Virus record (IMG/VR): IMGVR_UViG_3300029288_000081
Span: 96,001-160,000 of that record
DNA length: 64,000 bases
Reading direction: 5' to 3' (one strand)
From: a virus
Taxonomy: Duplodnaviria; Caudoviricetes
Every line of letters begins with the position of its first letter. Position 1 is the stretch's first letter. Position numbers and translations under genes: made by a program. Shown here piece after piece: positions 9,801 through 62,769 of the stretch. The notes beneath the pieces were generated by a model. It made no database searches. It had not been told where the DNA came from and was given only the letters and a program-made list of their open reading frames with translations.

Positions 9801-10094
9801 CAGATCAGCGCCGTTCACAGCGAACGCGATGTGGTCGTGGATGTCGTCGCTGAAAGGATTCTCGTCGAACGGATTTTCGTACGCCTCACTCGATCGCGAC
9901 GTGGGCTCCATCGACGGAGCTGCGCCAGCGGCCTTCTCGTACGCCCTCTGCTCCGCTTCGTACTCGTCGTCGCGAACGAGTCGAACGAACTTCCCGTGCT
10001 TCCAGTAGCCGTCGGACCTCGGCCAGTAGCCAGGCGGCCAAGCGCTCAACCTCTCCGGCGGCGCCATCAGATCGGGCGAGATCGCGTGCCTCAT
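6858..10094 (-). CDS. Large SF2-like helicase / replication initiator-type protein with a Cys cluster
   Basis: Walker A PSPGVGKT, Walker B MLMVDED, GRGKDQY, motif VI-like ELAQALHRVRP; Cys cluster between the Walker motifs. Confidence 0.7.
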   Translation of the reverse strand: MRHAISPDLMAPPERLSAWPPGYWPRSDGYWKHGKFVRLVRDDEYEAEQRAYEKAAGAAPSMEPTSRSSEAYENPFDENPFSDDIHDHIAFAVNGADLLHERALTARQRFRNASKNVLSTALRTAINEPVAKLIEAVLHVRIDAGRLRASADPDLDFIVWAASYQVALGAFKEVERLGALALTPDSLSEGAQEPPLPQVQDWATVSSKVQADVAAWAANVRGKKGQMLIAKPSPGVGKTKTMVDTALHEQSQRQRVVMAVRTKEILVGELVSRIQNAGHGQVRLHVIQGRDESTCWCFDNVKVVQAHGYSPGSTVCSRCEYHPDIARKLRTFTVCPYYRSRQNAQNDTASARFGMNDYPIIATTTAGYLAAVASGGGRFGKFWPCDMLMVDEDPTDAFEPEVVVKAEHLVLPTPPKPEDRAAHAMATLLRGAFAQAELERKALEGRGWVVNGVQSPIHNRHGSAYAGNDLHKLFDRVASGPFGQQHGLQSATRVLRDVCDSHVHPAAGSLHGATTAAAVSLVVPPRGLSLLGEALFEEDAMRTQLRRLAYKKIHQKEMSSTMTSAQVDAALAESDEFDTVYRVRLEFAQGEWRFVFQDFVSMLDQNTNIIYGDAYANIEHTRQVFDKPASLPADPSYVDPVTIINHVARFPSGSVPARFRTKANITYLTTDGWGEHEAILITVLRKCAEKKVLIYAHGSLRERVEKTFADNNNFGVAAWAFENWGGGRGKDQYGDWDAVVTISDYVQNIGGMLHKVNARAARDTKKLLMLNKTDEAFVESTRIRLDMNKADIAHKMADPGTHWRIKQEHDRRNVSELAQALHRVRPLRSDKLMVVLGDAIPFTEDTIAAAVTVNLPGGPAGRSKIRTWYGDGCLTTSESYIALCALEEMFGFASPVFLHAFFGIEMDEFLNGMWHRATASAPSCQGQADLYRDSLLRDQPILCRPTPPTPTTEANMPGDPGASGPQTEGPMTGLPWRAVLSMAQQVWEPPAAWKNIYQLASQRLMRTKEASRRMSREFPFSGWYKPSWEDRAHPGYVWYSRHSVKTGARAAMDMLENQYGPNQNGVLYVPNKKPFIPY
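7275..7315. repeat. Perfect 13-bp inverted repeat in an AT-rich patch within the helicase gene (candidate origin)
   Basis: AGGCTGATCTCTA (7275-7287), 15-nt spacer, TAGAGATCAGCCT (7303-7315). Confidence 0.8.
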
Positions 10095-26828: not shown

Positions 26829-27310
26829 AGCAGCCCCCTTCGCAGGCTCTTCTCGCCCGAGATGCGCTCGTAGGCGCGCTCGCGCTTGACGAGCTTGGCG
26901 TACGCCTCGATCTGCTCCACGAAGAGCACCGTCGACTGGATCGCCGTATCGCGCGTCGTGTCGTACAGGCCGAGCCCCGACGGCACGGGCACGGACGCGA
27001 CCCCGTCCACGATGATGCTGCGCAGCGCTTCGCACACCCTGACGGCCAGGAGGTACTCCGCGAAGTTCCACTGCCAGCGCGGCTTGATGCGGGCTCCCTG
27101 GACCGCACACGGTGTGAGAGCGGTGGCTGCGTCGAGCTGCACCAGGAGCACCGTCGCCGTCTTCGCGTGGACGGGGTTGAGCTTGAGCAGTTCGAGCACT
27201 GCGATGACGTCGGCGGTCGCCTTGGCGCCTGCTGCCCAGGTCGACGCCGACACCGGGTCGAACGGCATGGGCTCGGAGGGCTTCTTACGGAGGAGGGGGG
27301 CGGGCATCAT
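26825..27310 (-). CDS. Hypothetical protein (161 aa)
   Basis: Start re-called at MMPAPLL, overlapping the VWA gene stop. Confidence 0.65.
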   Translation of the reverse strand: MMPAPLLRKKPSEPMPFDPVSASTWAAGAKATADVIAVLELLKLNPVHAKTATVLLVQLDAATALTPCAVQGARIKPRWQWNFAEYLLAVRVCEALRSIIVDGVASVPVPSGLGLYDTTRDTAIQSTVLFVEQIEAYAKLVKRERAYERISGEKSLRRGLL

Positions 27311-30348: not shown

Positions 30349-31476
30349 TCAGCGCTTGGCCGAGAAGTCGATGCCGGCGCGTTCCAGGATCGGCAGGATC
30401 TCGTCCAGCTCCTCCGGAAGGTTCCGCTCGACTCCCTTGGGCATGTTGTTCGCCAGGACGCGCGTCGCCGGGATGGCGATGTCGCCCTTGGTCTTGAGGA
30501 CGCGACCGATCACCTGCCAGCCGCGGTAGTAGCGCTCGATGCGCACCTTCTCGGTCTTGGAGCTGTCGAGGGCAGCCGCAGCGACCGAGTCGAGGGTCGC
30601 CATGATCTGATCCTGGCGCGTCGGAAGCGGCACGCCCGTCGGGTTCGCGAGGTACTCCTCCGGGTCGCGGAGGTCCAGGTCGGTGAACCACTTGGTGAAC
30701 TCGACCGTCGCACCCTCGCCGACGCAGCCCTTGATGAGCAAGCGCGCGACCGGCGACTTCTTGCCGTGTCCGCACGACTCGGCCGCGGTCAGAAGGTCGG
30801 AGACACGCGACCACATGCGCGGGGACGGCCACGCCTGTCCCTGCTCCTTCGCCGACTTGGGGAGCGCGAGCAGAAGCTCGGGGCGCCGCTGGATGAACGC
30901 TGCGAGCAGACCGCGGTTCGCCGCCGCGTTGTCGCGCCAGTTCTTGGGGAGGATCGCGATCTCGGGGCTCGGCCAGCCCGAGATCATGCCCTCGCACCAG
31001 TCGGCGGGCGGGAGCGGCCAGTCGATGTGCGTCCAGCGGTTCGAGATGGCGGCGGTCAGATCGTAGCCGCCCTGGACCATCGAGGCCGGATTGCCGGCGG
31101 CGACGTGCGACGTCTGCGCGGGGAGCTTCATGTCGCCCGCGTAGCCACCGTGGATGACGCGGAGGGCAGAGGACTGAGTGGTCGGCGGGGCGGTGTTGAA
31201 CTCGTCCCAGAACACGACCCCGTGCCCCTTCTCCTTCAGCTCGAACGCCCAGAGCGGCGGGTGCATCGAGACACCGTCGGGCCTCACCACGGGCAACCCG
31301 CCCTGGTCGGACGGCTCGCGAATGGACAGGATGACGGTCCAGATCGGCTCGTTGAGCGCCGGAGCGATCTCTTCGAGGCAGACGGACTTTCCCACACCCG
31401 GTGCGCCCCAGAGGAACACCGGGACGCGAGCCTGGATGCAGATCTGGGCGGCGAGCATGTGGTCTTGCACGGTCAT
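30349..31476 (-). CDS. MoxR-family AAA+ ATPase
   Basis: GAPGVGKS, VFWDEFN, AAGNP, ISNRWTH, WPSPRMW; typical partner of DUF2201/VWA proteins. Confidence 0.9.
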   Translation of the reverse strand: MTVQDHMLAAQICIQARVPVFLWGAPGVGKSVCLEEIAPALNEPIWTVILSIREPSDQGGLPVVRPDGVSMHPPLWAFELKEKGHGVVFWDEFNTAPPTTQSSALRVIHGGYAGDMKLPAQTSHVAAGNPASMVQGGYDLTAAISNRWTHIDWPLPPADWCEGMISGWPSPEIAILPKNWRDNAAANRGLLAAFIQRRPELLLALPKSAKEQGQAWPSPRMWSRVSDLLTAAESCGHGKKSPVARLLIKGCVGEGATVEFTKWFTDLDLRDPEEYLANPTGVPLPTRQDQIMATLDSVAAAALDSSKTEKVRIERYYRGWQVIGRVLKTKGDIAIPATRVLANNMPKGVERNLPEELDEILPILERAGIDFSAKR

Positions 31477-47109: not shown

Positions 47110-47466
47110 ATGTCGACCTCGACACCCAAGGCTCCGCTGCGAGGCATCGGTGGCTATTCGACCACGCAGCCGCCTCGGACCGAACGCCGTCCTGCTATGG
47201 TCGTCAAGTACCAGGGACAGCGTGCCCACGTTCGCTTCCACGACGGAATGACTTACGGAATGCCCTCGGGACCGCTGATGCAGATCGGCGTGCCCGAGGG
47301 CGCTACGTTCATTCTCGTGACGACCTGGGTAGGCAAATCGCCGGTGTCCAGTCACGTCGAGCGCATGCCGGAGGCCCGGCCGCCCATGGATCGACGCAGC
47401 GGCACACCGAAGATCGTCGAGCGAAACGGCAAGAAGATGGTCACGCGGCAGCCATCTAGCCGGTAA
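47110..47466 (+). CDS. Hypothetical protein (118 aa)
   Basis: TAGACT-7nt-ATG, a leaderless-type context. Confidence 0.7.
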   Translation: MSTSTPKAPLRGIGGYSTTQPPRTERRPAMVVKYQGQRAHVRFHDGMTYGMPSGPLMQIGVPEGATFILVTTWVGKSPVSSHVERMPEARPPMDRRSGTPKIVERNGKKMVTRQPSSR

Positions 47467-47490: not shown

Positions 47491-48141
47491 GTGAGCGTAG
47501 AGCGTGCGAGACTCCATGCGGGCGCCTGGGCCGGTCACTTCGACATGCTCAGAGCACACCTGTATGCGCCCACCTTCAACGAGGCGATCGGAACCACGGA
47601 GCCATACCGTGGGACCGATCACACCGTGGCGGTGATGATCCAGCTCGCCAAGGGTCTCGTCGACCCTCGGGCGATGGTGCAGAGCGCGCTTCAGGGAGAG
47701 CGGAGCATCCGCTTCCGAAGGCACACCGAGCAGATCATCAACAATCTGCGGCCCAAGGACTACACGTCCGAAGTCATCGCCATCAGCAGGTGGTGGGGCA
47801 ACGCGGGCCGATACACACGGGACCCACTACACGTCGAGCTGATCCGTGCTCCGGACCGTCTCCTCGACGACGCGCTTGCCGGCAGACTCCTGGTCGACTG
47901 CGACGATCTGGCGCTCGCCATCGCGACGTCGTGCCTGACCATCGGGGCTCGCGCACAGTTCGTCACCGTGGGCTTCAAGCCGCGCCTGCCGGGCCAGCCG
48001 AAGGTCCACACGCACGTCTTCGCTCGGGCCCAGGACCCCAAGAGCAAGGTCTGGTGGGTGCTCGACCCGGTCGCCGGCCGTAAGACGGGCGACATGCTGC
48101 GTCGCGTGAAGCAGTACACGATCTTCGAGGTGGACCGATGA
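47491..48141 (+). CDS. Transglutaminase-like cysteine protease (candidate maturation protease)
   Basis: YTRDP...VELI, DCDD (Cys), THVF (His), WWVLDP (Asp) triad; true start may be ATG 47545. Confidence 0.8.
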   Translation: MSVERARLHAGAWAGHFDMLRAHLYAPTFNEAIGTTEPYRGTDHTVAVMIQLAKGLVDPRAMVQSALQGERSIRFRRHTEQIINNLRPKDYTSEVIAISRWWGNAGRYTRDPLHVELIRAPDRLLDDALAGRLLVDCDDLALAIATSCLTIGARAQFVTVGFKPRLPGQPKVHTHVFARAQDPKSKVWWVLDPVAGRKTGDMLRRVKQYTIFEVDR

Positions 48142-48452
48142 GCAGGTACTACGACGGACCGGGACTCGGTGTTTCTGCGCTGGGGCAGGCCATCGACTCC
48201 TCACCGCTGACGATCTCGGTCCGCCCGACGGGCGCACTGATCGGCGCATGGTGGAGCCTCTCGACCGTGAGCGGCCTCCTCAGCGCCTACCACGGCTACC
48301 GCCGCAACGACGGCAACCTTGCGTGGGCACTCGCATGGTTCCTCGCGGGCAGCGCGCTGCCCGTCATTGTGCCGGTCATCGCCTTCACGCAGGGCTACGC
48401 CAAGCCCGAAAGCATCTCGGCGAACAGGCGCCGCCGCAGGAGCCGTCGATGA
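48138..48452 (+). CDS. Membrane protein with an Arg-rich tail
   Basis: PGLG/ALGQ, two hydrophobic segments, ISAN-RRRRRSRR. Confidence 0.8.
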   Translation: MSRYYDGPGLGVSALGQAIDSSPLTISVRPTGALIGAWWSLSTVSGLLSAYHGYRRNDGNLAWALAWFLAGSALPVIVPVIAFTQGYAKPESISANRRRRRSRR

Positions 48453-49198
48453 GCTACTTCAACGGACACAGCCGCACCGGGCTCATGGGACTCGGAGCCG
48501 TCGCTGACGAACAGGAGCCCATCCGCCTGGGCGCCCGAGCGAAGGAAGACCCGATCCTGTCGGCCGCATCGTTGATCGCGTCCTCGGTCCTCGTGCGCAT
48601 GGCCGGCGTGCCCAAGCATCGGCGCCTTGCCGAGATGATCATCATCCTCAATGCAGGACGCCCTGGGTCTGGGGACGCAGCGGGTGTCGACTACCGCCGT
48701 CGCGCCGCCGCCGCGCCGGACAAGAAGGACCAGGCGATGTTCGACGCGGTTCGCGCGGCGGTCGCCAACGAGCTGGTTCGCCGGACGCTGAAGAGGGGTC
48801 CCGCTTCTCTCTCTGGCCTTGGGCAGACACTCGCAGAGGCGCGTGGCCAGACCAGCCGTGGCGTCAACGATGCGCAGGCAGTCTTCTGCACCTACATCGC
48901 TGGAACATCCGCGATGGTCGGCGGGTACGTCGATCAGCTCGCAAGCGGAGGCACGCAGAACACGGGCAACATCACCCGTGCGTCGGGTGCGGCTGCGGCC
49001 ACCGGCGGATGCGGTGCTGGCCAGCTGGTCATCCAGGGCGAGAACGCTCTGGCACAGGCTCGACTCGCGCAGAGCGGACAGGCCGCCGCGGCGCTCGCGG
49101 CTGCTGCGCGGGAAGCCACGTTCATGAAGTTCGCTCTGGTGGGCGGTGGCCTGCTGGGTGCGATGATCCTCGGCTACGTCGTCGTCAAGAAGATGTGA
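48449..49198 (+). CDS. Tail-anchored membrane protein (MSY family)
   Basis: MSYF..LMGLG, LSGLGQ, C-terminal TM; start re-called. Confidence 0.8.
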   Translation: MSYFNGHSRTGLMGLGAVADEQEPIRLGARAKEDPILSAASLIASSVLVRMAGVPKHRRLAEMIIILNAGRPGSGDAAGVDYRRRAAAAPDKKDQAMFDAVRAAVANELVRRTLKRGPASLSGLGQTLAEARGQTSRGVNDAQAVFCTYIAGTSAMVGGYVDQLASGGTQNTGNITRASGAAAATGGCGAGQLVIQGENALAQARLAQSGQAAAALAAAAREATFMKFALVGGGLLGAMILGYVVVKKM

Positions 49199-49905
49199 TG
49201 AGCTACGCATCGACAGGATCGGGTCAGGCCGCAGTGCGCGTTGGCAGCGCTGCACAGAGCGATCTTGTGCTCGCGAACGCGTCGCTCATCGCGTCGAAGA
49301 TCATGCTTGGGGCAGCAAAGAAGCCGGCACGCATCCGAGCTGCGTTCATCGCGAACAAGCTCGACGCGATGCGCCCGGGGCTCGCTCGCGAGGTGGCCAC
49401 CTCGCGTCGCCGCCTCGTCGCACAAGGCAAGGCTCCCGACCAGGCCGCGTTCGACGCGATGCGGCTCGCTATCGCGAACATGAACATGGCAGCGGGGATC
49501 GACTCCCTTCGCGTGTCGGCGGCCAAGGAGCACGGCGCAGAGGCCTTCAGCGGTCTCGGGCAGATGGCACCGAACGACCGCGCGACAGCGTGTACGGTGT
49601 CGGCCGGCGCCCAGGTGGTCGGCGGGATCGCAAGCATCGTCCCGGTCTACGGGACGATCATCGGTGGCATCATCAGTATCGGGTCCTCGATCGCTGGCGG
49701 AGCACTCGACTGCACGCGTGAACAGCGAGAAGCTGCGGCTGCGGCTGCGCAGGCTCAGGGGAATCTCGTTGCAGCGCAACAGGCAGCGGCAGCGCAGGCG
49801 GCGGCGCAGGCGGAAGCAACGAGCGGATCGCGAAGGCGCGTGTACATCATCGGAGGCGGCGCACTCGTCGTCGCTCTCGGAATCGGGTATCTCCTGCTGA
49901 GCTGA
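49198..49905 (+). CDS. Tail-anchored membrane protein (MSY family), paralog of 48449..49198
   Basis: MSYA, FSGLGQ, shared ASLIAS...RPG...DQAxFDAxRxAxAN domain, C-terminal TM. Confidence 0.8.
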   Translation: MSYASTGSGQAAVRVGSAAQSDLVLANASLIASKIMLGAAKKPARIRAAFIANKLDAMRPGLAREVATSRRRLVAQGKAPDQAAFDAMRLAIANMNMAAGIDSLRVSAAKEHGAEAFSGLGQMAPNDRATACTVSAGAQVVGGIASIVPVYGTIIGGIISIGSSIAGGALDCTREQREAAAAAAQAQGNLVAAQQAAAAQAAAQAEATSGSRRRVYIIGGGALVVALGIGYLLLS

Positions 49906-49953
49906 ACGAGTGGATTTCTCACGGAACTGGCTGGGCGCCGAACGGAGTAGAGG

Positions 49954-51405
49954 ATGAGCAACGACTACGGACTCGATGACGACGATGGAGATCTCTCCAT
50001 TCCGACGATGCGCGGCAGCGCCAATCTCGATCCGCAGGACTACGCACGTGGCCCGAGCGGAAGAGGCTCGTCTTTCCTCGACGACGACCTGGAGGAGGAC
50101 ACGCTGTCTACCCCAGGGCGCAACCCGGGCGCCGCGTCGGCTCCGGACATCGACGGCGAGAGCGACTGGGTGATCCAGGAGGAAGAGAACGGCCCTGGAA
50201 CCGCAGCGACAACCTACGGAAGTCACCCATGGGGCCCCGGCAGCGCCGTGGGCTACCGACCGCAGTCCATGCAGCGCACGGACATGACCCTTCGCGACTC
50301 GCAGCTTCGCGACGGAATGGGCGACGTGGAGACAGGCCGAACCCCGAAGCCGACGAAGCGAGACAGCATGCACAACGAGCCCGAGGTCCTGGAAACTGAT
50401 GACAGCGTCGTGGTGCCGAAGGCCCACTGGCACGGCAACAGGAACCAGCGCCCGTCGAACGCAGGCATCAACGAGGACACGATCTACGATCGCGAGAGCT
50501 ACGAGTACGACGACTCGTCGCAGGACACGATCGGCAGCGGCATCTTCGGCATGGAAGAGGGCGTCACCTGGCGCCCCCGCGACGGCTCCTTCGCTCACCA
50601 GTTCGCGCTCCCCGCGTACATCGGTGACGAGGACGAGCTGGGAGTCCAGCAGAGCGAGATGTTCGACACGACCGCGAACGAGTGGCGCGTCGTGCAGCCG
50701 TCGGCAGGAGGCGTGTCGCTCAAGACTCGCGTCGCCGACTACAAGCCTGGCTTCTCGCCCTTCGTACGCCGACCCGTCCCGGAGATGCGCCCCGAGGTGA
50801 CCGGTCCGCGCAGCCACATCGAGGCGTTCGGTCGCAAGGCCGCCAGCCTCATCGTGGCGGAGGCCAGGGTTCAGCCCCAGGCGACGCGCTCGCAGTTCGT
50901 CGCGAACGCGATCGAAGCTCTCGGGCCCGGCATGGCTGCCCGCGCGGGCGCGACCGCCAAGAAGCTCGTGGACCTCGGCCACAAGCCCGAGACGGCCCTG
51001 GAGGACGCGATCGCTCACGCGGTCATGCACGCTGCGGTCGGCGACCTGAAGAGCGCGAGCCGCACGTCGGGCAAGCTCGGCAACCTGGACCGCCTCGCCT
51101 CGCGCGTGAACCGCACGAAGCCGCAGATGCAGGCTGCGGCGGCCAGGCACATCGGCCCGCTCACGCAGGACACCCAGAAGCTCAAGAACGACCTCGGCGC
51201 TCTCTACGCTTCCCCGGCGGCCCTGGGCATGGGTCAGGTCGCCCAGGGCAGCGAGCCCAGCACGACGACGGCCGCGTCGCTGCTGACGCCGAAGAACCTG
51301 CTCATCGGCGCGGTCATCGGCATCGGCGGCTACTACGCCTGGCAGAACCGCAAGACGATCACCCGCAACGCCAAGCGCCTTGCGAGGAAGGCAGGGCTGC
51401 GATGA
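49954..51405 (+). CDS. Membrane-anchored protein with an acidic N-terminal half (483 aa)
   Basis: DGMGD, LGMGQ, C-terminal TM, ITRN-AKRLARK. Confidence 0.85.
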   Translation: MSNDYGLDDDDGDLSIPTMRGSANLDPQDYARGPSGRGSSFLDDDLEEDTLSTPGRNPGAASAPDIDGESDWVIQEEENGPGTAATTYGSHPWGPGSAVGYRPQSMQRTDMTLRDSQLRDGMGDVETGRTPKPTKRDSMHNEPEVLETDDSVVVPKAHWHGNRNQRPSNAGINEDTIYDRESYEYDDSSQDTIGSGIFGMEEGVTWRPRDGSFAHQFALPAYIGDEDELGVQQSEMFDTTANEWRVVQPSAGGVSLKTRVADYKPGFSPFVRRPVPEMRPEVTGPRSHIEAFGRKAASLIVAEARVQPQATRSQFVANAIEALGPGMAARAGATAKKLVDLGHKPETALEDAIAHAVMHAAVGDLKSASRTSGKLGNLDRLASRVNRTKPQMQAAAARHIGPLTQDTQKLKNDLGALYASPAALGMGQVAQGSEPSTTTAASLLTPKNLLIGAVIGIGGYYAWQNRKTITRNAKRLARKAGLR

Positions 51406-51698
51406 GTGGACGCAACGCGCAGGACTTCGTCACTCCCGAGGCACGCTACGCCGAGCACGAGCAGGAGATGTCCGGCGTGCCACGGGGCGGCGGCGGCGGT
51501 GTGGCCATGTACCCGCTCTACGGGCTCGGGCAGGCGTCGGCAGCGGTCGATCCCAACGCCTGGTACCGGCGCCCGATGTTCGTGCTGCCCTTCGGCGTCG
51601 CCCTCGGAGTCGGCATCGGATGGGGCATCTGGGGCTGGTTCATGCCGCGCATCAAGAAGAGCGTGCGCAAGAACATCCAGCGCGGCCAGGAGGACTGA
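51402..51698 (+). CDS. Small membrane protein (98 aa)
   Basis: LYGLGQ, TM, VRKN; start re-called at MSGRNAQ. Confidence 0.8.
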   Translation: MSGRNAQDFVTPEARYAEHEQEMSGVPRGGGGGVAMYPLYGLGQASAAVDPNAWYRRPMFVLPFGVALGVGIGWGIWGWFMPRIKKSVRKNIQRGQED

Positions 51699-51700
51699 CC

Positions 51701-52045
51701 GTGAGCTACAAGGTCAACAGAGACGTCGGCTACCAGCCCTGGGGCGTCACGAACCCGTGGGTCTTCGCTGACTACGGTCAGCCGCAGCGCCAGCGCGGTC
51801 AGGTCTCGCCGCTCGTCTACACGACGCAGCCGCCCTACCTGCGCTCGGCACACCTCAATCCGCCTCACCCGTACTTCCCCTCGTCGCACCTCGGACAGAC
51901 CTCCGAGGCTGATGCGCGCGGGGCGAGGATGGAAAGGTACGCCCTGGCCGGCGTGGTCTTCGGAGCGATCTCGCTCTTCATCACCTGGCAGGCCAGCCGC
52001 AAGAAGATGGCCGCGAACCGCAAACGCTCGCGCCGCAGCCGCTGA
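51701..52045 (+). CDS. Small membrane protein (MSY family, 114 aa)
   Basis: GTG start (SYKV), HLGQ, TM, MAAN-RKRSRRSR. Confidence 0.8.
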   Translation: MSYKVNRDVGYQPWGVTNPWVFADYGQPQRQRGQVSPLVYTTQPPYLRSAHLNPPHPYFPSSHLGQTSEADARGARMERYALAGVVFGAISLFITWQASRKKMAANRKRSRRSR

Positions 52046-52060
52046 GAGGAACAACCACCC

Positions 52061-52876
52061 ATGAGCTACTACGAAGAAGGCATGATGGGGCTCGGCGACC
52101 TGCCGGCCGGCGCAACGATCCCCTCCGGGGCTCAGTACGCGCTCGGCTTCCAGGTCACCGGCCTGACGCCCACGACGTCGCCCCAGGCGGTCTCGGCGCT
52201 GCGGGCAGTGGTCGGCACGGCGTTCCGCGGGAACCTCGTGGCGGCCGGCTGGGGGCCCGCGTACGGGGTCCCTTCTGGCCGACTCTACGCGGTGCTCCAG
52301 ACGGCACGCGGCCTGACCGGCGCCGACATGAACACCGTGGCGCACATGATCACCGGTGCCCTGCCTTCTCGCCTGCCTGGAACGACGGTGACCAACACCA
52401 ACTTCCACCTGGTCGGCGGCTCAGGCGGAGGCGCTGCGGAGACGGCAGCGGCCAGCATCACCGGTGCCATCGACCCCGTCACCGGACTCCTCACCGCCCT
52501 CACGTCAGGCACTCCCGCTACCTACCCTGGGGCCGACGCTGGCTACCCCATCGCCACAGAGCCCGCCGAGAACTTCTTCACCCAGAGCGTGGGCGGCGTG
52601 CCGGTGTGGGGCCTGCTCGCGGGCGGCGTGGTGGCGATCGGCGCCATTGCGTACGTCTTCATGGGCAAGCCCAAGACAGCGGCGACGGTGACGGCGAACC
52701 GCAAGAGCAAGCGCGGGAAGAAGCAGCATCGCTGGCGCAATCGCCAGGGACAGTGGCACGTCGGCGGCGGGTACGGCCGCGAACGCGGTCAGGGACGAGG
52801 CGGCCGTGATCGGGTCCGTCGGTCGTCGTCGGATGGGCCGTCATGGCTGAACACGAACGGTCGGAGGACACGATGA
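52061..52876 (+). CDS. Membrane protein (MSY family, 271 aa)
   Basis: MSYYEEGMMGLGD, TM, VTAN-RKSKRGKK...LNTN-GRRTR. Confidence 0.85.
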   Translation: MSYYEEGMMGLGDLPAGATIPSGAQYALGFQVTGLTPTTSPQAVSALRAVVGTAFRGNLVAAGWGPAYGVPSGRLYAVLQTARGLTGADMNTVAHMITGALPSRLPGTTVTNTNFHLVGGSGGGAAETAAASITGAIDPVTGLLTALTSGTPATYPGADAGYPIATEPAENFFTQSVGGVPVWGLLAGGVVAIGAIAYVFMGKPKTAATVTANRKSKRGKKQHRWRNRQGQWHVGGGYGRERGQGRGGRDRVRRSSSDGPSWLNTNGRRTR

Positions 52877-54084
52877 GCTACGCAGGACTCGGACAGATTC
52901 TCGCCAACATCGGCGCTCGCATGACAGGCGCCGTCGTGTCGCCGACCCCCAGCCGCGTGGTTGTGGCACCCTCTCGCCCCAGCAGCCCCATCGTCGTGAC
53001 GCTGCCCCCGCGACCGAGCGGCGGTGCCGTGGTGGTGACCAGGGCTCCGGCAGCAGACGCGCTCACAGCAGCAGCGATCGCCAAGGCCAACGTCGACCGC
53101 GCGTTCCGCGCGTATGCGGCGACCAGCTACAACGATCCTCTCGCACGCAACAACCGTAGGCAGGCCCTGCTCGCAGCGGGTCGCGAGATGGTCAGGAAGT
53201 TCATGGCGGTGAGGCCCGCCACGGAGACCGAGCGTCTGCGACTGCGGGCCCTGGAAGCGACCGCACTCGCGAGTTCGCAGACGCGGCAGCGGTGCTTCAG
53301 CACCGGCAGCAACGGCTGCGGGCGCTTCGCCGCGAACGAGCCGCCCGGTCCGGTCAAGGTGAACGACGAGTTCGTGGCCGTGACGCGTCCGCTGGACAAC
53401 CTCCTGCGGCTCAACGTCACGCCCATGGCCATGCCGGTTCCCCGGGTGCCGCCGATCGTCATCGCCGGTCGTCTGATCCAGACCGTCTCTCCGCGCGCGG
53501 CGCAGCTCGTGGTGGACTCGGCCAAGGCCGGAACGGCAACGGCGGCTGCCAAGCTGGAAGCTGACGTGAAGGTCTCCCAGGAGGTCACCAAGCCCGAGAC
53601 GAAGGTCGCCGCGGACAAGGTCGTCGTGGCCCAGGCGGGCGCGGACGCGGCAGCCAAGGCAGCGGAAGACCTCGCCATGAAGGCCAAGATGGCCGCCGAG
53701 GAGGCCGACAAGGTCGCCCAGGCTGCCAAGGAGGCAGGGACCATCGCCGCCGCTCAGGCGGCAGCCACGGCAGCCCAGGCGGCAGAGCAGGCCAAGGTGG
53801 TGGCAGAGCAGGCCACAGTGGCCGCTGCCGAGGTCGCCACGGTCGCGGACGAGGCACGGAGCGAGCTGGAGACGGTCGCTGCGGAGACCAACGACGTGCC
53901 CGCTCAGGAGGCGACGACCGAGGCGACCATGACGGTCGCAACGACCGGCCTCGGACCGCTCGGCGTGTCGTGGAAGATCTGGGGCCTCGGCGCCGCAGCG
54001 CTCGTCGGCGGCTACTTCCTCCTCAACAGCCGAGCCATGGCGAAGAACCGCCGTCGCGTTCGTCGGAACCGGAGGCACCGGTGA
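52873..54084 (+). CDS. Ala-rich coiled-coil membrane protein (MSY family, 403 aa)
   Basis: MSYAGLGQ, TM, MAKN-RRRVRRNRRHR; GGAGG RBS. Confidence 0.85.
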   Translation: MSYAGLGQILANIGARMTGAVVSPTPSRVVVAPSRPSSPIVVTLPPRPSGGAVVVTRAPAADALTAAAIAKANVDRAFRAYAATSYNDPLARNNRRQALLAAGREMVRKFMAVRPATETERLRLRALEATALASSQTRQRCFSTGSNGCGRFAANEPPGPVKVNDEFVAVTRPLDNLLRLNVTPMAMPVPRVPPIVIAGRLIQTVSPRAAQLVVDSAKAGTATAAAKLEADVKVSQEVTKPETKVAADKVVVAQAGADAAAKAAEDLAMKAKMAAEEADKVAQAAKEAGTIAAAQAAATAAQAAEQAKVVAEQATVAAAEVATVADEARSELETVAAETNDVPAQEATTEATMTVATTGLGPLGVSWKIWGLGAAALVGGYFLLNSRAMAKNRRRVRRNRRHR

Positions 54085-54389
54085 GCCTCTTCGGCACCCA
54101 CCTCTTCGCGAGCGACGCTCTCGGTCAGGTCACCCTGCCCGAGCCCGCGAGCGACGCTCTCATGAGCGAGCTGCGGGTCACCGGCGGCCGCTCGCGCACG
54201 GTCGAGCCCTCCAGCACACCGGACGTGCCCAAGGAGACGGGCGACAAGATGCTCTCCGGCGGAGGACTGCCGACCTGGGCACCCTACGCGATGGTCGGCG
54301 GCGGCATCATCTTCGCTGGGCTGATGATCTGGTCCTCGATGCGGCGCCCGACCCCCAACCGTCGTCGCCGCCACAGGAGATCCCGATGA
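54081..54389 (+). CDS. Small membrane protein (102 aa)
   Basis: GTG start, ALGQ, TM, PTPN-RRRRHRRSR. Confidence 0.8.
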   Translation: MSLFGTHLFASDALGQVTLPEPASDALMSELRVTGGRSRTVEPSSTPDVPKETGDKMLSGGGLPTWAPYAMVGGGIIFAGLMIWSSMRRPTPNRRRRHRRSR

Positions 54390-54958
54390 GCTACTTCGAG
54401 ACACTTCCCGGCATGGGACGCCCCAGCTACAGCGACGGCATGGGCGCTGTCTTCCCCACGAGGGAAGAGAGCCCCGACATGCGGGCTCTTCAGCAGGGCC
54501 TCCAGCGCATGAACCTGCTCCCGGTCGACGGAGCCACCGGCCGCTGGACCATCGCCACGGCAGCCGCGCTCGCAAAGGCCAACAAGAACCTCGGTCGCAC
54601 CGCAGCACCGCGCACCGGGTTCACCACCACCAACCGCGGCGCGAACGTCGATGTCCCGGACGATCTCGTCGCGGCCATCCTGAACACGCCCGCTGCGCCT
54701 CCTGCGGCACCTCCCCCCGGTCCCGATCCGGCCGCCACGCCGCCCCCGGGCATGATGCTCATCGCGCCGACCGCGCCGCCCCCCTCGCTTCTGCCTCCCG
54801 CCATCGAGGAGCCGTCTCGCACGAAGCTCTACGTCGCGGCAGGCCTCGCGGTGGTGGTGGTCGGTGGGATCGCCGCCTACGCGCTCTGGCCGAAGAAGAA
54901 GAGCACGCCGAACAGGCGCCGTGTGCGTCGCAACCGGCGTCGGCGCTCGCGTCGCTGA
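54386..54958 (+). CDS. Membrane protein with a peptidoglycan-binding-like domain (MSY family)
   Basis: LPGMG, DGMG; MRALQQGL...VDGATGRWTIATAAAL; Pro linker; TM; STPN-RRRVRRNRRRRSRR. Confidence 0.8.
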   Translation: MSYFETLPGMGRPSYSDGMGAVFPTREESPDMRALQQGLQRMNLLPVDGATGRWTIATAAALAKANKNLGRTAAPRTGFTTTNRGANVDVPDDLVAAILNTPAAPPAAPPPGPDPAATPPPGMMLIAPTAPPPSLLPPAIEEPSRTKLYVAAGLAVVVVGGIAAYALWPKKKSTPNRRRVRRNRRRRSRR

Positions 54959-55018
54959 ACTTTCACGGGGCCGTGGGTGGACCCCGTCGTTTCCGAACAA
55001 CCAAGAGGGCTGGGCAAG

Positions 55019-55711
55019 ATGAACGAGCATGATTTCGTGACCGACGACGAGACCGACGAGATGTTCAACGGAGATCAGCAGGAAGCTCCTGCTGTGGCGA
55101 TGCAGTCGCAGCATCAGCCGGTCAGCAACATGGGTGGCCTGCCGGTGTACCCGCTCTCGCTCGCACAGGCGCCCTCTGCGCCGGCAGAGGACAACATCCT
55201 GACCCGCAAGTTCGGGCCGCTGCCCGTGTGGGGCTGGGCGCTGACGGCGCTCGGCACCGGCATCGGCGGCTACCTCTGGTGGCAGTCGACGCAGAAGAAG
55301 GTCTCCAAGAACGAGAGCGATGACGGAGACCGCGAGACAGCAAGGGCCGCTCTGCCCGAGGACACGGGCAGTGAGCGCGGAACGTGGGGGCCGAGCCGAG
55401 GTGGCTTCTGTGAGCAGCTCAACAAGCACTTCATGCGCAAGGGCATGTCGGACAAGGTCAAGATCTTCGACGATGCCGACGAGGCGAAGGCCAGCGGAAA
55501 GCTCAAGCAGGTCTCGCCGCTCATCAACATCAAGTGCGAGTCGTCCTACAAGCCCGACAAGGACCTGATCAAGATCTGCAAGCGCGAGGGCCTCAACCCG
55601 ATCGTCCACGAAGACGGCGCGATCGGTCTCTACCCCGCGTCCTCGGGCAAGCGTGCCCAGGAGTGGGAGAAGTACATCGACCTGCTGCGCGATGACGGGC
55701 AGAAGGTCTGA
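55019..55711 (+). CDS. Membrane protein (230 aa)
   Basis: Start re-called at MNEHDFVT; central TM, then VSKN and a soluble domain. Confidence 0.8.
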   Translation: MNEHDFVTDDETDEMFNGDQQEAPAVAMQSQHQPVSNMGGLPVYPLSLAQAPSAPAEDNILTRKFGPLPVWGWALTALGTGIGGYLWWQSTQKKVSKNESDDGDRETARAALPEDTGSERGTWGPSRGGFCEQLNKHFMRKGMSDKVKIFDDADEAKASGKLKQVSPLINIKCESSYKPDKDLIKICKREGLNPIVHEDGAIGLYPASSGKRAQEWEKYIDLLRDDGQKV

Positions 55712-55751
55712 CGGGATCGGCTGAGGTATCCTCGGCCACCAGGAGAACGCG

Positions 55752-56492
55752 ATGAGCTACGCAGGACTCGGACAGGACTTGGTGCCCACTGCAACCGTGG
55801 GACGCAGCACGTACCGTCGGCAGACGGGCGACTACGTCCGAGTCCCTGCGACGTGGGCTCAGCGCGCCGCGAACGCCGGCAACCGCTACAACAGCGGGTC
55901 GGCTCCGCTCATCGCGGTGGACGGCAAGGCCGGACCGGTCACGATCGCCGCTCTTCGGACCCTCTCGCAGCAGTTCTCCTCGGGCCTGCCGGTGACCAAC
56001 GACCCGGTGGCGAGCCGCGTCACCGACAACGTGGTCATGCCGGTCGCGCTGGAGAACTCGCTCGCTGCGAAGCACATCGTCGCCGACCCCCGACCCTCGG
56101 CAGCGACGCGCCGCACGCCTGCGCCGACGAGCGGCGGCGGCACGACGACCACGGTGCCGATCCCCGGCGCCACGCCTGCCGCCACGCCTGCCGACGAGAT
56201 CATCCTCGACGAAGGTTCCTCGTCGGGCATCCAGGGTCTCATCGCCCGCTACGGCATCTGGCCGTGGGCGGCTGGCGGCGCAGCGCTCGTCGCCCTCGGC
56301 ATCTACTTCGTCGCGACCGGACCTGGGATGCGTCGGAACAGCAGCAAGCGCAGGGGCGGGTGGAACTACCCATGCCCGGCGTGTGGCGAGCCCGAGCTGG
56401 GCAAGGCGGGACACGGGAGCGGCTGTGTGCTCGCGAAGAGGACCGCCGCGCTCTCGGTGCCCAAGCGCAAGAAGAGGAAGGCCGTCCGATGA
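55752..56492 (+). CDS. Membrane protein with a peptidoglycan-binding-like motif (MSY family)
   Basis: MSYAGLGQ, IAVDGKAGPVTIAAL, TM, MRRN-SSKRR, CPAC...H...C tail; AGGAG RBS. Confidence 0.85.
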   Translation: MSYAGLGQDLVPTATVGRSTYRRQTGDYVRVPATWAQRAANAGNRYNSGSAPLIAVDGKAGPVTIAALRTLSQQFSSGLPVTNDPVASRVTDNVVMPVALENSLAAKHIVADPRPSAATRRTPAPTSGGGTTTTVPIPGATPAATPADEIILDEGSSSGIQGLIARYGIWPWAAGGAALVALGIYFVATGPGMRRNSSKRRGGWNYPCPACGEPELGKAGHGSGCVLAKRTAALSVPKRKKRKAVR

Positions 56493-57103
56493 GCTACTTC
56501 ACCAGCACCGCCAAGCGCTCGCGCACGCACAGCCTTCACGGCATGGGCTGTGGCTGCGGGATGAATGGCCTCGGGGACATGATCGCGCTTCCGGCAACAC
56601 TGGCCACCCCCGGCGAGATGGTTGCAGCGATCGATCTGATCAACCGCAGCGTGACATCGCTGAACGCAGACGTGCAGGCGAACGCACAGCGCCTGCATGC
56701 CACGCAGGACGGCATCAGGTTCTTCTCGCAGTGGCAGATCTTCAAGGCCGAGTGGATCACGTTCTTCACGGACCACAACCGAGGAACCTCCTTCGCCACT
56801 CGCATCGGGCCGCTGGAGTACGGAAGCGGGCAGTTGGCCGCGCAGATTCGTGACAAGGCCACGGCCTACAACGCCATGGAACAGCGCTATCGCAACCTCG
56901 GCCTCGAACCGACGATCACGGCTGCGGTTCCGCTGGAGGAGAGGTTGTCCAACCTCGGGACCGGCGCGTTCATCACGGCGGGGCTGGGCATCGCAGCGGT
57001 GGTGGCCGTCGGGTACCTCCTGAGCAACTACGCCAAGATCAAGATGATGTCGCGGCTCGCGTTCAACGGGCGCCGCAGTCGCCGAAGGAAGAGGAGTCGC
57101 TGA
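56489..57103 (+). CDS. Membrane protein (MSY family, 204 aa)
   Basis: LHGMG, MNGLGD, helical domain, TM, LAFN-GRRSRRRKRSR. Confidence 0.85.
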   Translation: MSYFTSTAKRSRTHSLHGMGCGCGMNGLGDMIALPATLATPGEMVAAIDLINRSVTSLNADVQANAQRLHATQDGIRFFSQWQIFKAEWITFFTDHNRGTSFATRIGPLEYGSGQLAAQIRDKATAYNAMEQRYRNLGLEPTITAAVPLEERLSNLGTGAFITAGLGIAAVVAVGYLLSNYAKIKMMSRLAFNGRRSRRRKRSR

Positions 57104-57105
57104 TC

Positions 57106-57486
57106 ATGTCGTACATGCGAGGAATGGGAACCACAGCCACGGACGTCGCCGCCGTCACCACAGCGGTGGGCACTGCCGCGGCGCAGCTCATCGCGGCGGC
57201 GCGAGGCACACCGGCGACCACGCCGTACTCGACGGAGGGAGCGATCAACCCCGCCACGGGCCAGCCCTACGGGACGCTGCTCAATCCCGCCACGGGCATG
57301 CCCTACGGGGCGATCGACCCGGCCACCGGGCGCCCCTACGGCGAGCCGGCGCCGTCCTACACGCCGTACATCGTCGGCGGCCTCGTGCTCCTGGGCATCG
57401 GCGCCTTCTTCTTCACGCGGAAGCGGAGCGTGGCGAAGAACAGGCGTCGCGTGCGCCGGAACCGTCGCCGCTCGCGCAGGAGCTGA
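57106..57486 (+). CDS. Membrane protein with three (N/D)PATGxPYG repeats (MSY family)
   Basis: MSYMRGMG, repeats, TM, VAKN-RRRVRRNRRRSRRS. Confidence 0.85.
   Translation: MSYMRGMGTTATDVAAVTTAVGTAAAQLIAAARGTPATTPYSTEGAINPATGQPYGTLLNPATGMPYGAIDPATGRPYGEPAPSYTPYIVGGLVLLGIGAFFFTRKRSVAKNRRRVRRNRRRSRRS
57238..57342 (+). repeat. Three coding tandem repeats of 33-36 bp
   Basis: GAINPATGQPY / GTLLNPATGMPY / GAIDPATGRPY. Confidence 0.85.
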
Positions 57487-57489
57487 GCC

Positions 57490-58326
57490 ATGTCGTACGC
57501 CCTCTCGCAGGTCGACCCCACACCGCCGCCGACGAGGCCGATGAACTGGCCGATGATCCTCGGCTGGACCGCTGTCGTCGGCATGACGATCGCCGTCTTC
57601 AACGGCACCATCAACCTCCAGGGTGGACGCGTGAAGGCGAACAGGCGACACAGGTCGTCGCGCAGGAGGTCGTCGCGCAGGCGTAGCCTGCGGCGCAACC
57701 CCCGCTACCGGATGTGGTCGGGCCCGGTGTACGCGAAGGACCTCGCGAAGGCGATCCGTGACGCCGGAGCGCACGACGTCATCGCTGGCACCGAGCACGT
57801 CATCTTCCGTACGGATGACCTCGAAGCCCTCAAGGCGCGAGCCGGATCCGCGAAGCCATTCCTCGATTTCCGTGGCGTGAAGATGATGATGGCCAACGCC
57901 AGCCGCCGCTCCTCGCACGCGCGACCGAAGCCGCCGAAGTTCAGCGAGATGGCCATCTGGCAGGCGATCGCCGCGGTGCGCGAGTCGGGCCGCTCCTCCG
58001 AGATCGCCAGCATCCTGCCGCCCGGCGTCGCCGCGAAGTTCAAGCACCTCGCCCCCGGGCTCTACAAGTACGGACGTGGGCCCAAGAAGGGCGAGGTCAT
58101 CGTCCAGTTCAAGAACGCAGGACTCAAGGGCGCTCTCACCTCCACGCGCATCGGCGCCTCGAAGGTCGGCGAGTACCACTGGGTCGTCGACAACTTCGAC
58201 CCGAAGTTCCCCGTCGCCATCCGCGGCATCGACGATCACGGGCGCACGTTCTTCCGGATCGAAGAGCACGCACGGAAGTTCGAGCGTGTGCCGGTCCGCG
58301 TCTCGCGCAAGACCGCAGCGCGGTGA
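57490..58326 (+). CDS. MSY-family protein: N-terminal TM followed by two small domains behind Asn/Arg linkers
   Basis: TM, VKAN-RRHRSSRRR, LRRN-P, MMAN-ASRR. Confidence 0.8.
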   Translation: MSYALSQVDPTPPPTRPMNWPMILGWTAVVGMTIAVFNGTINLQGGRVKANRRHRSSRRRSSRRRSLRRNPRYRMWSGPVYAKDLAKAIRDAGAHDVIAGTEHVIFRTDDLEALKARAGSAKPFLDFRGVKMMMANASRRSSHARPKPPKFSEMAIWQAIAAVRESGRSSEIASILPPGVAAKFKHLAPGLYKYGRGPKKGEVIVQFKNAGLKGALTSTRIGASKVGEYHWVVDNFDPKFPVAIRGIDDHGRTFFRIEEHARKFERVPVRVSRKTAAR

Positions 58327-59585
58327 GCATGCCCAAGCTGCTCGCCAACGGCAGGCCGGAGGCCAAGGGTCGCCGATCATCCAACAAGGAGGTCGGCGAC
58401 CTGATCCAGAAGGCCCGCGCGCAGGGCTGGTCCGTCCTGCACACCGGCAGCGGGCACTACGTCTTCCGCTCGCCCGACAAGACGAAGCCCCAGGTGATCG
58501 TGCCGAGCACGCCAGGAGGCGGCAACCGCTCGCTTCAGAACGCAAGAGCCCTGCTCAAGAAGAGCGGTCTCGTCATGAACCCGTACTACCACGCGACTCG
58601 TGCCGACTTCGCACGGCAGATCCTGGAGGAGCGCAAGCTCCGTGCACATCCGGCGAGGAAGTACGGCGGCCGCCCTGCCGTGTTCGCAGGAGACACGCGG
58701 TCTTCGACGATGGGAGACGCCGCGCTGAGCTGGTCCGACAGCAAGCACTCCCTGCACTTCGGGGCACATCCCGAAGACGAGAACGTGCTGATCGAGTTCG
58801 AGGCTGACGAGCCCGATGACCGGCGCGGCCCGCACGGGCACGAAGCGGTCTGGTTCCACGACGTGGAGCTTCGCGACCCGAAGATCGTCACGCGCCGTCC
58901 TGGACGCATGGTGTGGAACGGCGGAGACGTCGCTGCGCGGTTCATGCGGCTCGTCAACATGACGCCTTCGCAGATCCGAGCATGGGCCAAGGACCCTCGT
59001 TCCAGGTGCTACTCGTTCGCCTCGACACGTGCACGTCTCCCGGCACTCGCGAAGCTGCGAGCCAAGCCGGTGAGCGAGTGGACGGCGAAGGACTACGCCT
59101 TCGCACGACGCGTGGTCTCGTTCAACACCCGCATGCTCGGTGCCAAGCGACGCGACGGGTGCCGAGACGGCTACACCGTCTCTCTTCGGAACTGGGGACA
59201 CGATCCGAGGTGCAAGCTCCCGGTGTCGTGCAAGAGCAAGAGGTCTTCGATGAAGAGGAACAAGCGACGCGTTCGCAGGAACCCGCAGGTCTCGTACGGT
59301 CTGATCGCCATCGGCATCGCTGGTGTCGCGGCGCTGGCTTGGTGGGCTTCGCGGCCAGCCGTGCCGACCACGCCAGCGCTCGCGGCGAACCAGAACGCAG
59401 CGGCTGCGGTTGCCGCGCAGCGTGAGCCAGAGATCGTCCGCATGATGGCGCGTGACCCTCGTCTCACACGAGCGGAGGCTGCTGCGCGGTACGATCGCGC
59501 TGTCGGCGCTGTCTTCGCTGCGGCGTCTACGATCGCCGCGGGCCTGCGCCCCACGAGCGGCATGGGCAGCTACTATAGGACGTGA
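58323..59585 (+). CDS. Multidomain polyprotein-like protein: HicA-like + ART-like + DUF3140-like + TM
   Basis: QGWSVLHTGSGHYVFRSP...VIVPSTP; YYHATR...QIL; FMRLVNMTPSQI...SLRNWGHDP; TM YGLIAIGIAGVAALAWW. Confidence 0.75.
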   Translation: MSMPKLLANGRPEAKGRRSSNKEVGDLIQKARAQGWSVLHTGSGHYVFRSPDKTKPQVIVPSTPGGGNRSLQNARALLKKSGLVMNPYYHATRADFARQILEERKLRAHPARKYGGRPAVFAGDTRSSTMGDAALSWSDSKHSLHFGAHPEDENVLIEFEADEPDDRRGPHGHEAVWFHDVELRDPKIVTRRPGRMVWNGGDVAARFMRLVNMTPSQIRAWAKDPRSRCYSFASTRARLPALAKLRAKPVSEWTAKDYAFARRVVSFNTRMLGAKRRDGCRDGYTVSLRNWGHDPRCKLPVSCKSKRSSMKRNKRRVRRNPQVSYGLIAIGIAGVAALAWWASRPAVPTTPALAANQNAAAAVAAQREPEIVRMMARDPRLTRAEAAARYDRAVGAVFAAASTIAAGLRPTSGMGSYYRT

Positions 59586-62704: not shown

Positions 62705-62769
62705 CACTCTCGAAGACCTGGGGCGTGCCCCTCCCTGCTACGGCGGGTCGAGCGGGTGACGTGTGTCCA

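Follow-up and report, generated by a model that had tools for sequence, protein, structure and literature searches.

A glycine-based tag on late tail-anchored proteins of a 171-kb virus and the neighbouring transglutaminase-fold enzyme that may read it

What is the short glycine motif that recurs on otherwise unrelated membrane proteins encoded by the late genes of the uncultivated bacterial virus recorded in IMG/VR as IMGVR_UViG_3300029288_000081, and which protein, if any, reads it? The record is 171,466 bp long and is rated complete by CheckV; the stretch of DNA analysed here, hereafter the window, comprises its bases 96,001-160,000 (64,000 nt). All genes from ~43.2 kb of the window through the genome end lie on the + strand, and these late genes are densely packed, with frequent stop/start codon overlaps and AGGAG-type ribosome sites. 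In a first-pass annotation of the window, 13 motifs resembling the cleavage sites of the adenovirus protease, adenain, were listed in the late membrane proteins and interpreted as processing sites at which an M-S-Y propeptide is removed. Here we confirm that G-(L/M)-G is a real tag, biased in position and conserved as a peptide, on late tail-anchored proteins, and report that it is also found in distant relatives of an enzyme of transglutaminase fold whose gene stands at the head of their block. We tentatively propose that the tag is a maturation cut site read by this neighbouring enzyme.

All 13 motifs were found where the first-pass annotation had placed them, on + strand late proteins, and six further G-(L/M)-G sites bring the total in the window to 19; the additional sites include GPGLG (48138-48452), RDGMG (49954-51405), TTGLG and IWGLG (52873-54084) and TSGMG (58329-59585). 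Enrichment was assessed by shuffling residues within each of 15 late proteins (3,360 aa). In this set G[LM]G occurs 18 times against 3.5+/-1.8 expected, a count that none of 200 shuffles reached. Ten sites fall within the first 30 residues (0.42 expected), [ML]xG[LM]G is present eight times (0.3 expected) and G[LM]G[QD] nine times (0.3 expected), in line with the earlier remark that Q or D often comes next after the motif. For the control pattern G[AVI]G there is no such excess (7 found vs 9.7 expected), which shows that Gly-rich background does not account for the tag; in the remaining 233 proteins of the genome G[LM]G shows no excess either (35 observed vs 31.8 expected). The enrichment over Gly-rich background on which the first-pass annotation had made its proposal depend is thus present in the late block.

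Fifteen different codon triplets are used among the 19 window sites, and the Ser of M-S-Y is encoded by AGC in some genes and by TCG or TCC in others; these varied codons and switches between Ser codon families indicate selection on the peptide and not a repeat at the DNA level. The carriers share a common grammar, in which an M-S-Y start and the Gly motif are followed by an unrelated middle, one C-terminal hydrophobic helix, an Asn and an Arg-rich tail. The motif has the conserved core G-(L/M)-G-(Q/D/A), in most cases behind a Tyr/Arg-rich M-(S/T)-Y leader, and variants occur in both orders (SY..GLG as well as GLGSY or GMGSYY), one of them at a C-terminus. M[ST]Y opens 20 of the 248 called proteins of the genome, where we estimate that composition alone would give ~0.4 MSY starts, and three carriers outside the block start MSYARGLGQ, MSYAMMGLGQ and MSYAGLGS.

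The pattern recurs in related viruses. Relatives were retrieved via the enzyme gene as seven IMG/VR contigs and seven contigs from bins of metagenome-assembled genomes (MAGs), with 53-91% identity in the enzyme, and 13 of them went into the analysis. Each of the 13 has the enzyme gene ahead of the same series of small membrane-protein genes, and G[LM]G is found at 4.04 per 1000 aa downstream of it vs 0.70 upstream. A site lies in the first 35 residues of 35 of the 116 downstream proteins and of 3 of the 107 upstream ones, and an M[ST][YF] start is found in 43 of 116 and 1 of 107, respectively. When the family of a small late protein starting MSYKVNR (alignment A3) was used as an independent anchor, the same viral contigs plus one fragment were obtained; as both anchors give the same contigs, the co-occurrence of tag and enzyme is to be read as holding within this clade.

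The N-terminal tags of the clade comprise 41 distinct cases with leaders of 2-31 residues (median 9), which are enriched in Tyr (12.7% vs 2.6%) and Arg (14.4% vs 7.9%). Across 126 clade sites the only fixed positions are G, L/M and G; the residue after the motif is Q in 26% (33/126; background 4.7%), A in 16% and D in 13%, and many orthologues retain only x-L-G-(Q/D/E/S), as in HLGQ, ALGQ and RLGE. Internal sites are kept at module borders, namely ahead of the membrane anchor in the 483-aa protein (in L003, L007, L008, L009, L011, L016, L018 and L022), midway along the 249- and 235-aa paralogues, and after the N-terminal domain of the MSYKVNR family; both sites of the 249-aa protein are conserved in the L006, L008, L016 and L022 orthologues. 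The leader is wholly absent from some orthologues, for instance the L009, L019 and L020 members of the 249-aa family, and is thus dispensable for the mature domain. Most carriers share nothing except the tags.

The candidate reader, or protease, of the tag is the product of 47545-48141, from an open reading frame that begins at 47491. The first-pass annotation had called it transglutaminase-like and the only protease candidate in the block, and both descriptions hold, the former for the fold and the catalytic triad. In an alignment of 20 homologues C119 (in DCD), H157 (in HTHV) and D174 (in LDPV) are invariant, and in an AlphaFold2 (AF2) model (pLDDT 80.8) C119 opens a helix (119-132), H157 opens a strand (157-163) and D174 follows a strand (170-173). 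The top Foldseek matches of the model are the putative cysteine proteases 3kd4 (E 9.7e-5) and 3isr (E 8.5e-4), followed by TglA, LapG, PNGase, Rad4, TgpA and PeiP. Structural alignment with VIA-align gave Z 13.2 and a root-mean-square deviation of 2.8 over 152 residues for 3kd4, Z 11.2 for 3isr, Z ~11 for TG3, TG2 and factor XIII, and Z 8.6 for LapG. As modelled, the enzyme has the transglutaminase core fold with the canonical Cys-His-Asp order. This fold is common to proteases, transglutaminases, PNGase and PeiP, and hydrolysis of peptide bonds by the viral enzyme is a prediction. A predicted complex of the enzyme (A1) with residues 1-40 of the 55752-56492 product scored 0.05, with a mark of 0.32, and is neutral on binding.

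The enzyme matched no Pfam or PHROG family, and PF01841 was absent from a six-frame search of the genome; 167 homologues were found, and among the 120 listed, 2 carry a precomputed PF01841 match. A search of 1.84 billion cluster representatives (clusters at 50% identity) returned 1,968 family members at E<=0.001, and the family profile run against PDB sequences gave only spurious repeat matches to designed Kelch proteins. In homologue P0016 an intein sits directly before the catalytic Cys of D-C-D. About a dozen more representatives match the profile in two separated stretches at the same point, and P0241, P0242, P0247, P0272, P0290, P0296 and P0308 (340-540 aa, with a split profile match) probably also carry an intein. 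Inteins usually mark essential active sites.

Among 32 distant long-form homologues of the enzyme, those with at least 60 residues past the catalytic domain, 10 have G[LM]G within the next 50 residues (2.4+/-1.5 expected) and 14 have [GAS][LM]G in the same stretch (5.5+/-2.1 expected), numbers reached in 0 of 1000 shuffles in either case, and most such C-terminal extensions finish with a hydrophobic transmembrane (TM) helix and a basic tail. The window enzyme stops right after its domain, and the overlapping gene 48138-48452, whose product matches by position the C-terminal anchor module of the fused homologues, starts MSRYYDGPGLG and ends with a helix and ANRRRRRSRR. Judged from these sequences, the domain-anchor joint of the fused forms corresponds to a gene boundary in the window, with the tag on the anchor side. 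A tag at this joint in distant homologues links the motif to the enzyme family across deep divergence; we regard it as the strongest new argument for an enzyme-tag relation, although such sequence evidence cannot alone separate cutting from docking. The enzyme's own disordered residues 1-20 (window 47545-47604) hold the conserved pattern Y-x-P-x-Y-N-x-A-(V/I)-G-T, whose Gly is invariant. This N-terminus loosely resembles the Tyr-rich leader and the hydrophobic-Gly tag and, speculatively, may be a self-processing site.

The only isolate in which the enzyme family was found, SSIP-1 (Salisaeta icosahedral phage 1), is icosahedral and has no tail; it possesses an internal membrane, a T=49 capsid and a 44-kb genome (PMC6260650, PMC6356626). 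Among its 57 proteins, the enzyme-family profile (A1) detected gp34 with hmmsearch (38.4 bits, E 2.5e-12, profile positions 18-166), and a pairwise phmmer comparison of the enzyme with gp34 gave 5e-7; tblastn of the enzyme against 50,697 GenBank phages produced no match, and the link to SSIP-1 appears only via the profile. In gp34, which GenBank annotates as a structural protein, DCD, HVYV and LDP align to the motifs around Cys, His and Asp. The catalytic domain of gp34 is separated from a C-terminal membrane helix by a stretch with RARGMGEP. Late tail-anchored proteins with G[LM]G in their first 40 residues are in modest excess in SSIP-1 (4 vs 0.86 expected; 9 of 500 shuffles), the carriers being ORF36 (QAQGMGD), gp37 (NRGLGA), ORF52 (RAGLGL) and gp53 (DPGMGS). 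SSIP-1 thus resembles the present virus in having a homologue of the enzyme and late tail-anchored proteins with an N-proximal G[LM]G, and differs from it in genome size (44 kb vs 171 kb) and in lacking MSY leaders and Arg-rich tails. Beyond gp34 and the enzyme, no protein pair is detectably similar between the two viruses.

The proposal that the tag is a maturation cut site read by the neighbouring transglutaminase-fold enzyme is one that we hold tentatively and rank first because the motif is N-proximal or at joints, is borne by many unrelated late proteins, is accompanied by a conserved cysteine enzyme encoded at the head of the block and recurs at that enzyme's own joint. Under this proposal, G-(L/M)-G-(Q/D/A/S), in most cases with an M-(S/T)-Y leader of 2-31 residues, would be a shared maturation signal on tail-anchored membrane proteins of the particle, and the 47545-48141 enzyme would recognise the tag and most likely cut there. 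If the papain fold is a guide, a hydrophobic S2 pocket would take up the Leu/Met, and cleavage would follow the second Gly; the bond between L/M and G, the one cut at adenain type-1 sites, is an equally possible target. Short leaders would be trimmed in this way and, in a few cases, a module would be split from its membrane anchor, as in the 483-aa protein, the MSYKVNR family and the anchor of the enzyme itself in fused relatives. The variable leader length and the conserved sites at module boundaries form a pattern expected of processing sites. Binding of the tag by the enzyme, its cutting and the position of the scissile bond are the steps that we infer.

Several known systems offer partial parallels. 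Adenain cleaves (M/I/L)XGX-G and (M/I/L)XGG-X in pVI, pVII, pVIII, pIIIa, pTP and pX. As proposed here, many precursors of structural and core proteins bear one Gly motif, Arg-rich DNA-binding proteins are among the substrates, and a cysteine enzyme is located in the particle (in the present case only for SSIP-1 gp34); the pVI site IVGL-G (PMC4246237) resembles LMGLG and MMGLG. The viral enzyme differs from adenain in being transglutaminase/papain-like and not of clan CE, the host is a prokaryote, and cutting is a prediction. The hydrophobic P4 residue that is obligatory for adenain occurs in only ~25% of clade sites: M/L at this position, part of the motif as first annotated, does not define the tag, as 8 of the 19 sites in the window have it and, across the clade, 31 of 126 (25% vs 10% background).

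In phage T4 the leader of the internal proteins ends in a prohead protease site and is then removed. This short conserved N-terminal leader directs the internal proteins into the forming particle (PMC3012670) and, like M-(S/T)-Y in our virus and the related contigs, is carried by many unrelated proteins. The present case differs in that its carriers have membrane anchors, its motif is built on Gly where T4 has L/I-x-E, and no HMM match to S77/S78, the HK97 capsid or a terminase was obtained. LapG, one of the BTLCPs (cysteine proteases of bacteria that are transglutaminase-like), has the same core fold and Cys-His-Asp triad and cuts near the N-terminus of LapA, removing its N-terminal part (PMC3032545). 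LapG works in the periplasm, depends on calcium, is under the control of LapD and c-di-GMP and has one or a few substrates, whereas the viral enzyme has no signal peptide and ~20 putative substrates; sequence similarity to DUF920 was not detected in the latter. B proteins of the McjB type, from lasso-peptide biosynthesis, are cysteine proteases of transglutaminase fold, too, and take off an N-terminal leader right ahead of a Gly. Unlike the enzyme proposed here, they act on small ribosomal peptides and are aided by a cyclase and a domain for leader recognition, and this virus encodes nothing of the sort; the family has been listed among the papain-like enzymes (PMC10318531).

A number of observations weigh against a cut site. 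A simple cut site needs no conserved N-terminal M-(S/T)-Y, which hints at a function of the intact leader itself. In the MSYKVNR family (11 orthologues) the most conserved part is the segment before the site, a 50-residue domain and not a throw-away leader, so that removal of an MSY propeptide is a weaker claim than the first-pass annotation had made it. The separate anchor gene 48138-48452 retains the tag, which fits docking at least as well as cutting. The same fold is found in cell-wall isopeptidases (PeiP) and in cross-linking transglutaminases, and, for SSIP-1 gp34, a place in the virion would be just as fitting if it were a lysin used for entry. Lastly, the enzyme has no signal peptide, and would, if cytoplasmic, reach only N-termini on its own side of the viral membrane. 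For proteins that are anchored and Arg-tailed at the C-terminus, the positive-inside rule would put the N-terminal tags across the host membrane from such an enzyme, an objection that holds unless the viral membrane is assembled differently.

The main alternative, less likely than not but ranked close behind the cut site, is that the Tyr/Arg-rich leader and G-(L/M)-G form an uncut short linear motif for assembly or docking, which stays on the mature protein and recruits membrane proteins to the forming particle. The partner common to all carriers could be the transglutaminase-fold protein, a factor for membrane insertion, or a protein of the capsid or scaffold. This would suit the conserved N-domain of the MSYKVNR family and the detached anchor, which keeps its tag with nothing to sever. 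It would also suit the five-fold enrichment of Tyr in the leaders, the tag variants in both orders and even at a C-terminus, and the M-(S/T)-Y peptide itself, which is kept despite switches between Ser codon families and so implies that a free N-terminus matters. However, a fixed structural contact would not normally go with leaders that range from 2 to 31 aa and are absent from some orthologues, the internal sites lie where a module gives way to a membrane anchor, and the invariant catalytic triad and the intein at the Cys point to catalysis and not to mere binding.

It is improbable that the tag is cut by some other protease, of the host or a viral HExxH protein, while the transglutaminase-fold protein serves as a virion cell-wall peptidase for entry or exit. 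Candidates for such a protease exist, since the virus encodes, outside the block, eight HExxH proteins, including one that is SprT-like (PF10263, E 6e-14) and the DUF2201_N protein at 27307-29799. The first-pass annotation had suggested a second protease outside the window; the adenain- or Ulp1-fold enzyme for which it proposed to search was not found, PF00770 and PF02902 giving nothing at E<=1 in six frames of the whole 171-kb genome, a search that a very divergent CE fold may escape. The fold matches of the enzyme include the phage-type pseudomurein isopeptidase PeiP, and SSIP-1 gp34 is both membrane-anchored and structural, as are lytic proteins of other internal-membrane phages such as P7 of PRD1. 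Set against this, the transglutaminase-fold family has the motif at its own domain-anchor joint across deep divergence, which links the tag with this enzyme more than with some unrelated protease; the enzyme and tagged genes are syntenic in all relatives, and the enzyme has no cell-wall-binding domain. The SprT-like zinc protease domain, with HEVAH, is encoded at L004:14286-15233 (genome 170286-171233), near the right end of the genome, where it immediately follows two small genes whose products start MSY.

Still less probable is a true transglutaminase for which G-L-G-Q would be a Gln-donor tag, linking N-termini to lysines of the capsid or core or to amine lipids. The fold is as near to TG2, TG3 and factor XIII as to the putative proteases, and Gln is the commonest residue after the motif, yet a reactive Gln would be expected to be invariant, and Asp, Ala, Ser, Thr, Glu and Gly replace it, even at orthologous sites (GMGQV/GMGEV), leaving Gln in 33 of 126. 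We dismiss a by-product of composition or paralogy, namely of Gly/Leu/Ala-rich proteins at high GC or of one duplicated gene, since, for all the ~67% GC of the genome, its Gly/Ala-rich proteins and the paralogy of 48449-49198 and 49198-49905, it is already contradicted by shuffles that keep composition and never reach the counts, by the unenriched G[AVI]G, by replication in 13 contigs, by differing codons among carriers that mostly share only tags, and by the tags of the distant enzyme family.

The enzyme and the tag-related proteins of the late block are collected in Table 1.

Table 1. Window coordinates and main features of the enzyme and of late proteins with tags, leaders or variants thereof
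Product	Coordinates	Strand	Features
118-aa protein directly upstream of enzyme	47110..47466	+	N-proximal variant RGIGGY; orthologues RGLGSY, KGLGNY, KGIGNY
Cys-His-Asp enzyme, transglutaminase fold (as modelled)	47545..48141	+	198 aa from ATG 47545; open reading frame opens GTG 47491; no signal peptide or TM helix
104-aa protein	48138..48452	+	leader MSRYYDGP; GLG aa 9-11 (nt 48162-48170); ALGQ; one TM helix; tail ANRRRRRSRR
249-aa MSY protein	48449..49198	+	LMGLG aa 14 (nt 48488-48496); LSGLGQ aa 123 (nt 48815-48823); C-terminal TM helix
235-aa MSY protein, paralogue of 48449..49198	49198..49905	+	FSGLGQ aa 119 (nt 49552-49560); C-terminal TM helix
483-aa protein	49954..51405	+	RDGMGD aa 121; ALGMGQ aa 425 (nt 51226-51234), ~25 residues before TM helix and basic tail
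98-aa protein	51402..51698	+	YPLYGLGQ aa 41 (nt 51522-51530); TM helix; basic C-terminus
114-aa MSYKVNR-family protein	51701..52045	+	GTG start; conserved 50-residue N-domain; H-L-G-Q; TM helix; tail ANRKRSRRSR; 11-orthologue alignment A3
271-aa protein	52061..52876	+	starts MSYYEEGMMGLGD (MMGLG site nt 52088-52096); TM helix; basic tail
403-aa protein	52873..54084	+	starts MSYAGLGQ (nt 52885-52893); TTGLG and IWGLG at TM helix; tail KNRRRVRRNRRHR
102-aa protein	54081..54389	+	starts MSLF; relaxed site SDALGQ; TM helix; tail PNRRRRHRRSR
190-aa protein	54386..54958	+	starts MSYFETLPGMGR (LPGMG site nt 54410-54418); SDGMGA (nt 54437-54445); TM helix; tail PNRRRVRRNRRRRSRR
246-aa protein	55752..56492	+	starts MSYAGLGQ (nt 55764-55772); TM helix; basic tail
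204-aa MSY protein	56489..57103	+	LHGMGC (nt 56540-56548); MNGLGD (nt 56567-56575); TM helix; tail NGRRSRRRKRSR
126-aa protein	57106..57486	+	starts MSYMRGMGT (nt 57121-57129); TM helix; tail KNRRRVRRNRRRSRRS
278-aa protein	57490..58326	+	starts MSYALSQ; leader present, no G[LM]G core
418-aa multi-module protein	58329..59585	+	ends TSGMGSYYRT (nt 59559-59567); C-terminal tag then SYY

Further along the late genes, from window 62725-64000 on to L004:4135-5544 and L004:5607-6425, lie extremely basic proteins with protamine-like Arg/Ser-rich stretches. Two of these basic proteins are paralogues, with Arg-rich N-termini, the internal strict sites PMSGLGTMYA, GMLGMGTMYA and PMSGLGD, and a common C-terminal GG-x-FARHLF-x-GM; such tagged basic proteins look like genome-condensing core proteins. 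L004:6593-7429 (genome 162593-163429) encodes a late protein of 278 aa that belongs to no family, has 251 full-length homologues at 66-99% identity and is a candidate for the capsid protein. A counterpart of its C-terminal DVKYLIDGIHSRDVL, reading DVMLFIDGLRSRDIL, closes a protein of 154 aa from the early genes (genome 17004-17468). The AF2 model of the candidate (pLDDT 42) was unusable, an Atlas lead to the coat protein P2 of PM2 scored only 0.76, PF18628 was not found, and a profile of the protein matched nothing in PDB; as neither fold nor profile supports the candidate, the particle type rests only on the link to SSIP-1.

When the enzyme and ~35 other proteins were scanned with Pfam and PHROGs, no family of structural proteins, packaging proteins or proteases came up in the late block. 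Six hidden Markov models (HMMs) for capsid, packaging and protease families (PF05065, PF03237, PF01580, PF18628, PF04586 and PF03420) likewise found nothing in the genome, with no match even at E<=1 for PF03420, PF04586, PF05065 and PF03237. In the whole genome there was no HMM match to the HK97 capsid, Terminase_6N or an FtsK-type ATPase, nor to the prohead proteases S77 and S78. Products of the early arm include helicases, RtcB, a primase of the archaeo-eukaryotic type and an intein-bearing DUF2201/VWA protein, and no DNA polymerase was recognised among the proteins scanned. The metallopeptidase-like DUF2201_N/VWA protein is split by a LAGLIDADG intein and lies beside a MoxR-like AAA ATPase (phrog_1297), the two being at window 27307-29799 and 30349-31476 (- strand); a LAGLIDADG domain is also present in a glycosyltransferase at genome 45926-48466. 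Two proteins of ~1,000 residues, at window 6858-10094 (-) and genome 92119-95058 (-), matched neither Pfam nor PHROGs, and one of them holds HEITH. The MAG bins of the related contigs were considered as a guide to the host and rejected, their assignments (Acidobacteriota, Clostridia, Nannocystaceae, Planctomycetota, Patescibacteria, Saccharibacteria and Phycisphaeraceae) being contradictory; the placing of clade contigs L016-L022 in seven unrelated phyla or classes points to mis-binning.

Large viruses such as T4, phiKZ, adenovirus and poxviruses load and mature their particles by common cut-site or targeting codes. The underlying principle is known; the motif, its carriers and the enzyme family, no description of which was met in the literature searched, are apparently new; the tag is probably a cut-site or docking code for building a membrane-containing particle. 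We know of no such code in membrane-containing prokaryotic viruses, nor of one that uses a transglutaminase-fold enzyme. Because the six capsid, packaging and protease models remained unmatched, the tag is at present the best handle for listing the particle proteins of this virus, and the link to gp34 provides, in SSIP-1, a cultured system for testing the prediction. More doubtful than the cut site itself, and yet conceivable, is a wider generalisation, in which an unrecognised large group of membrane-containing prokaryotic viruses would mature their particles via a transglutaminase-fold protease that releases itself from its anchor at G-(L/M)-G and then trims the tag from ~20 tail-anchored, Arg-tailed membrane proteins. 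If true, this would represent a convergent counterpart of adenain in viruses without known capsid, packaging or protease genes.

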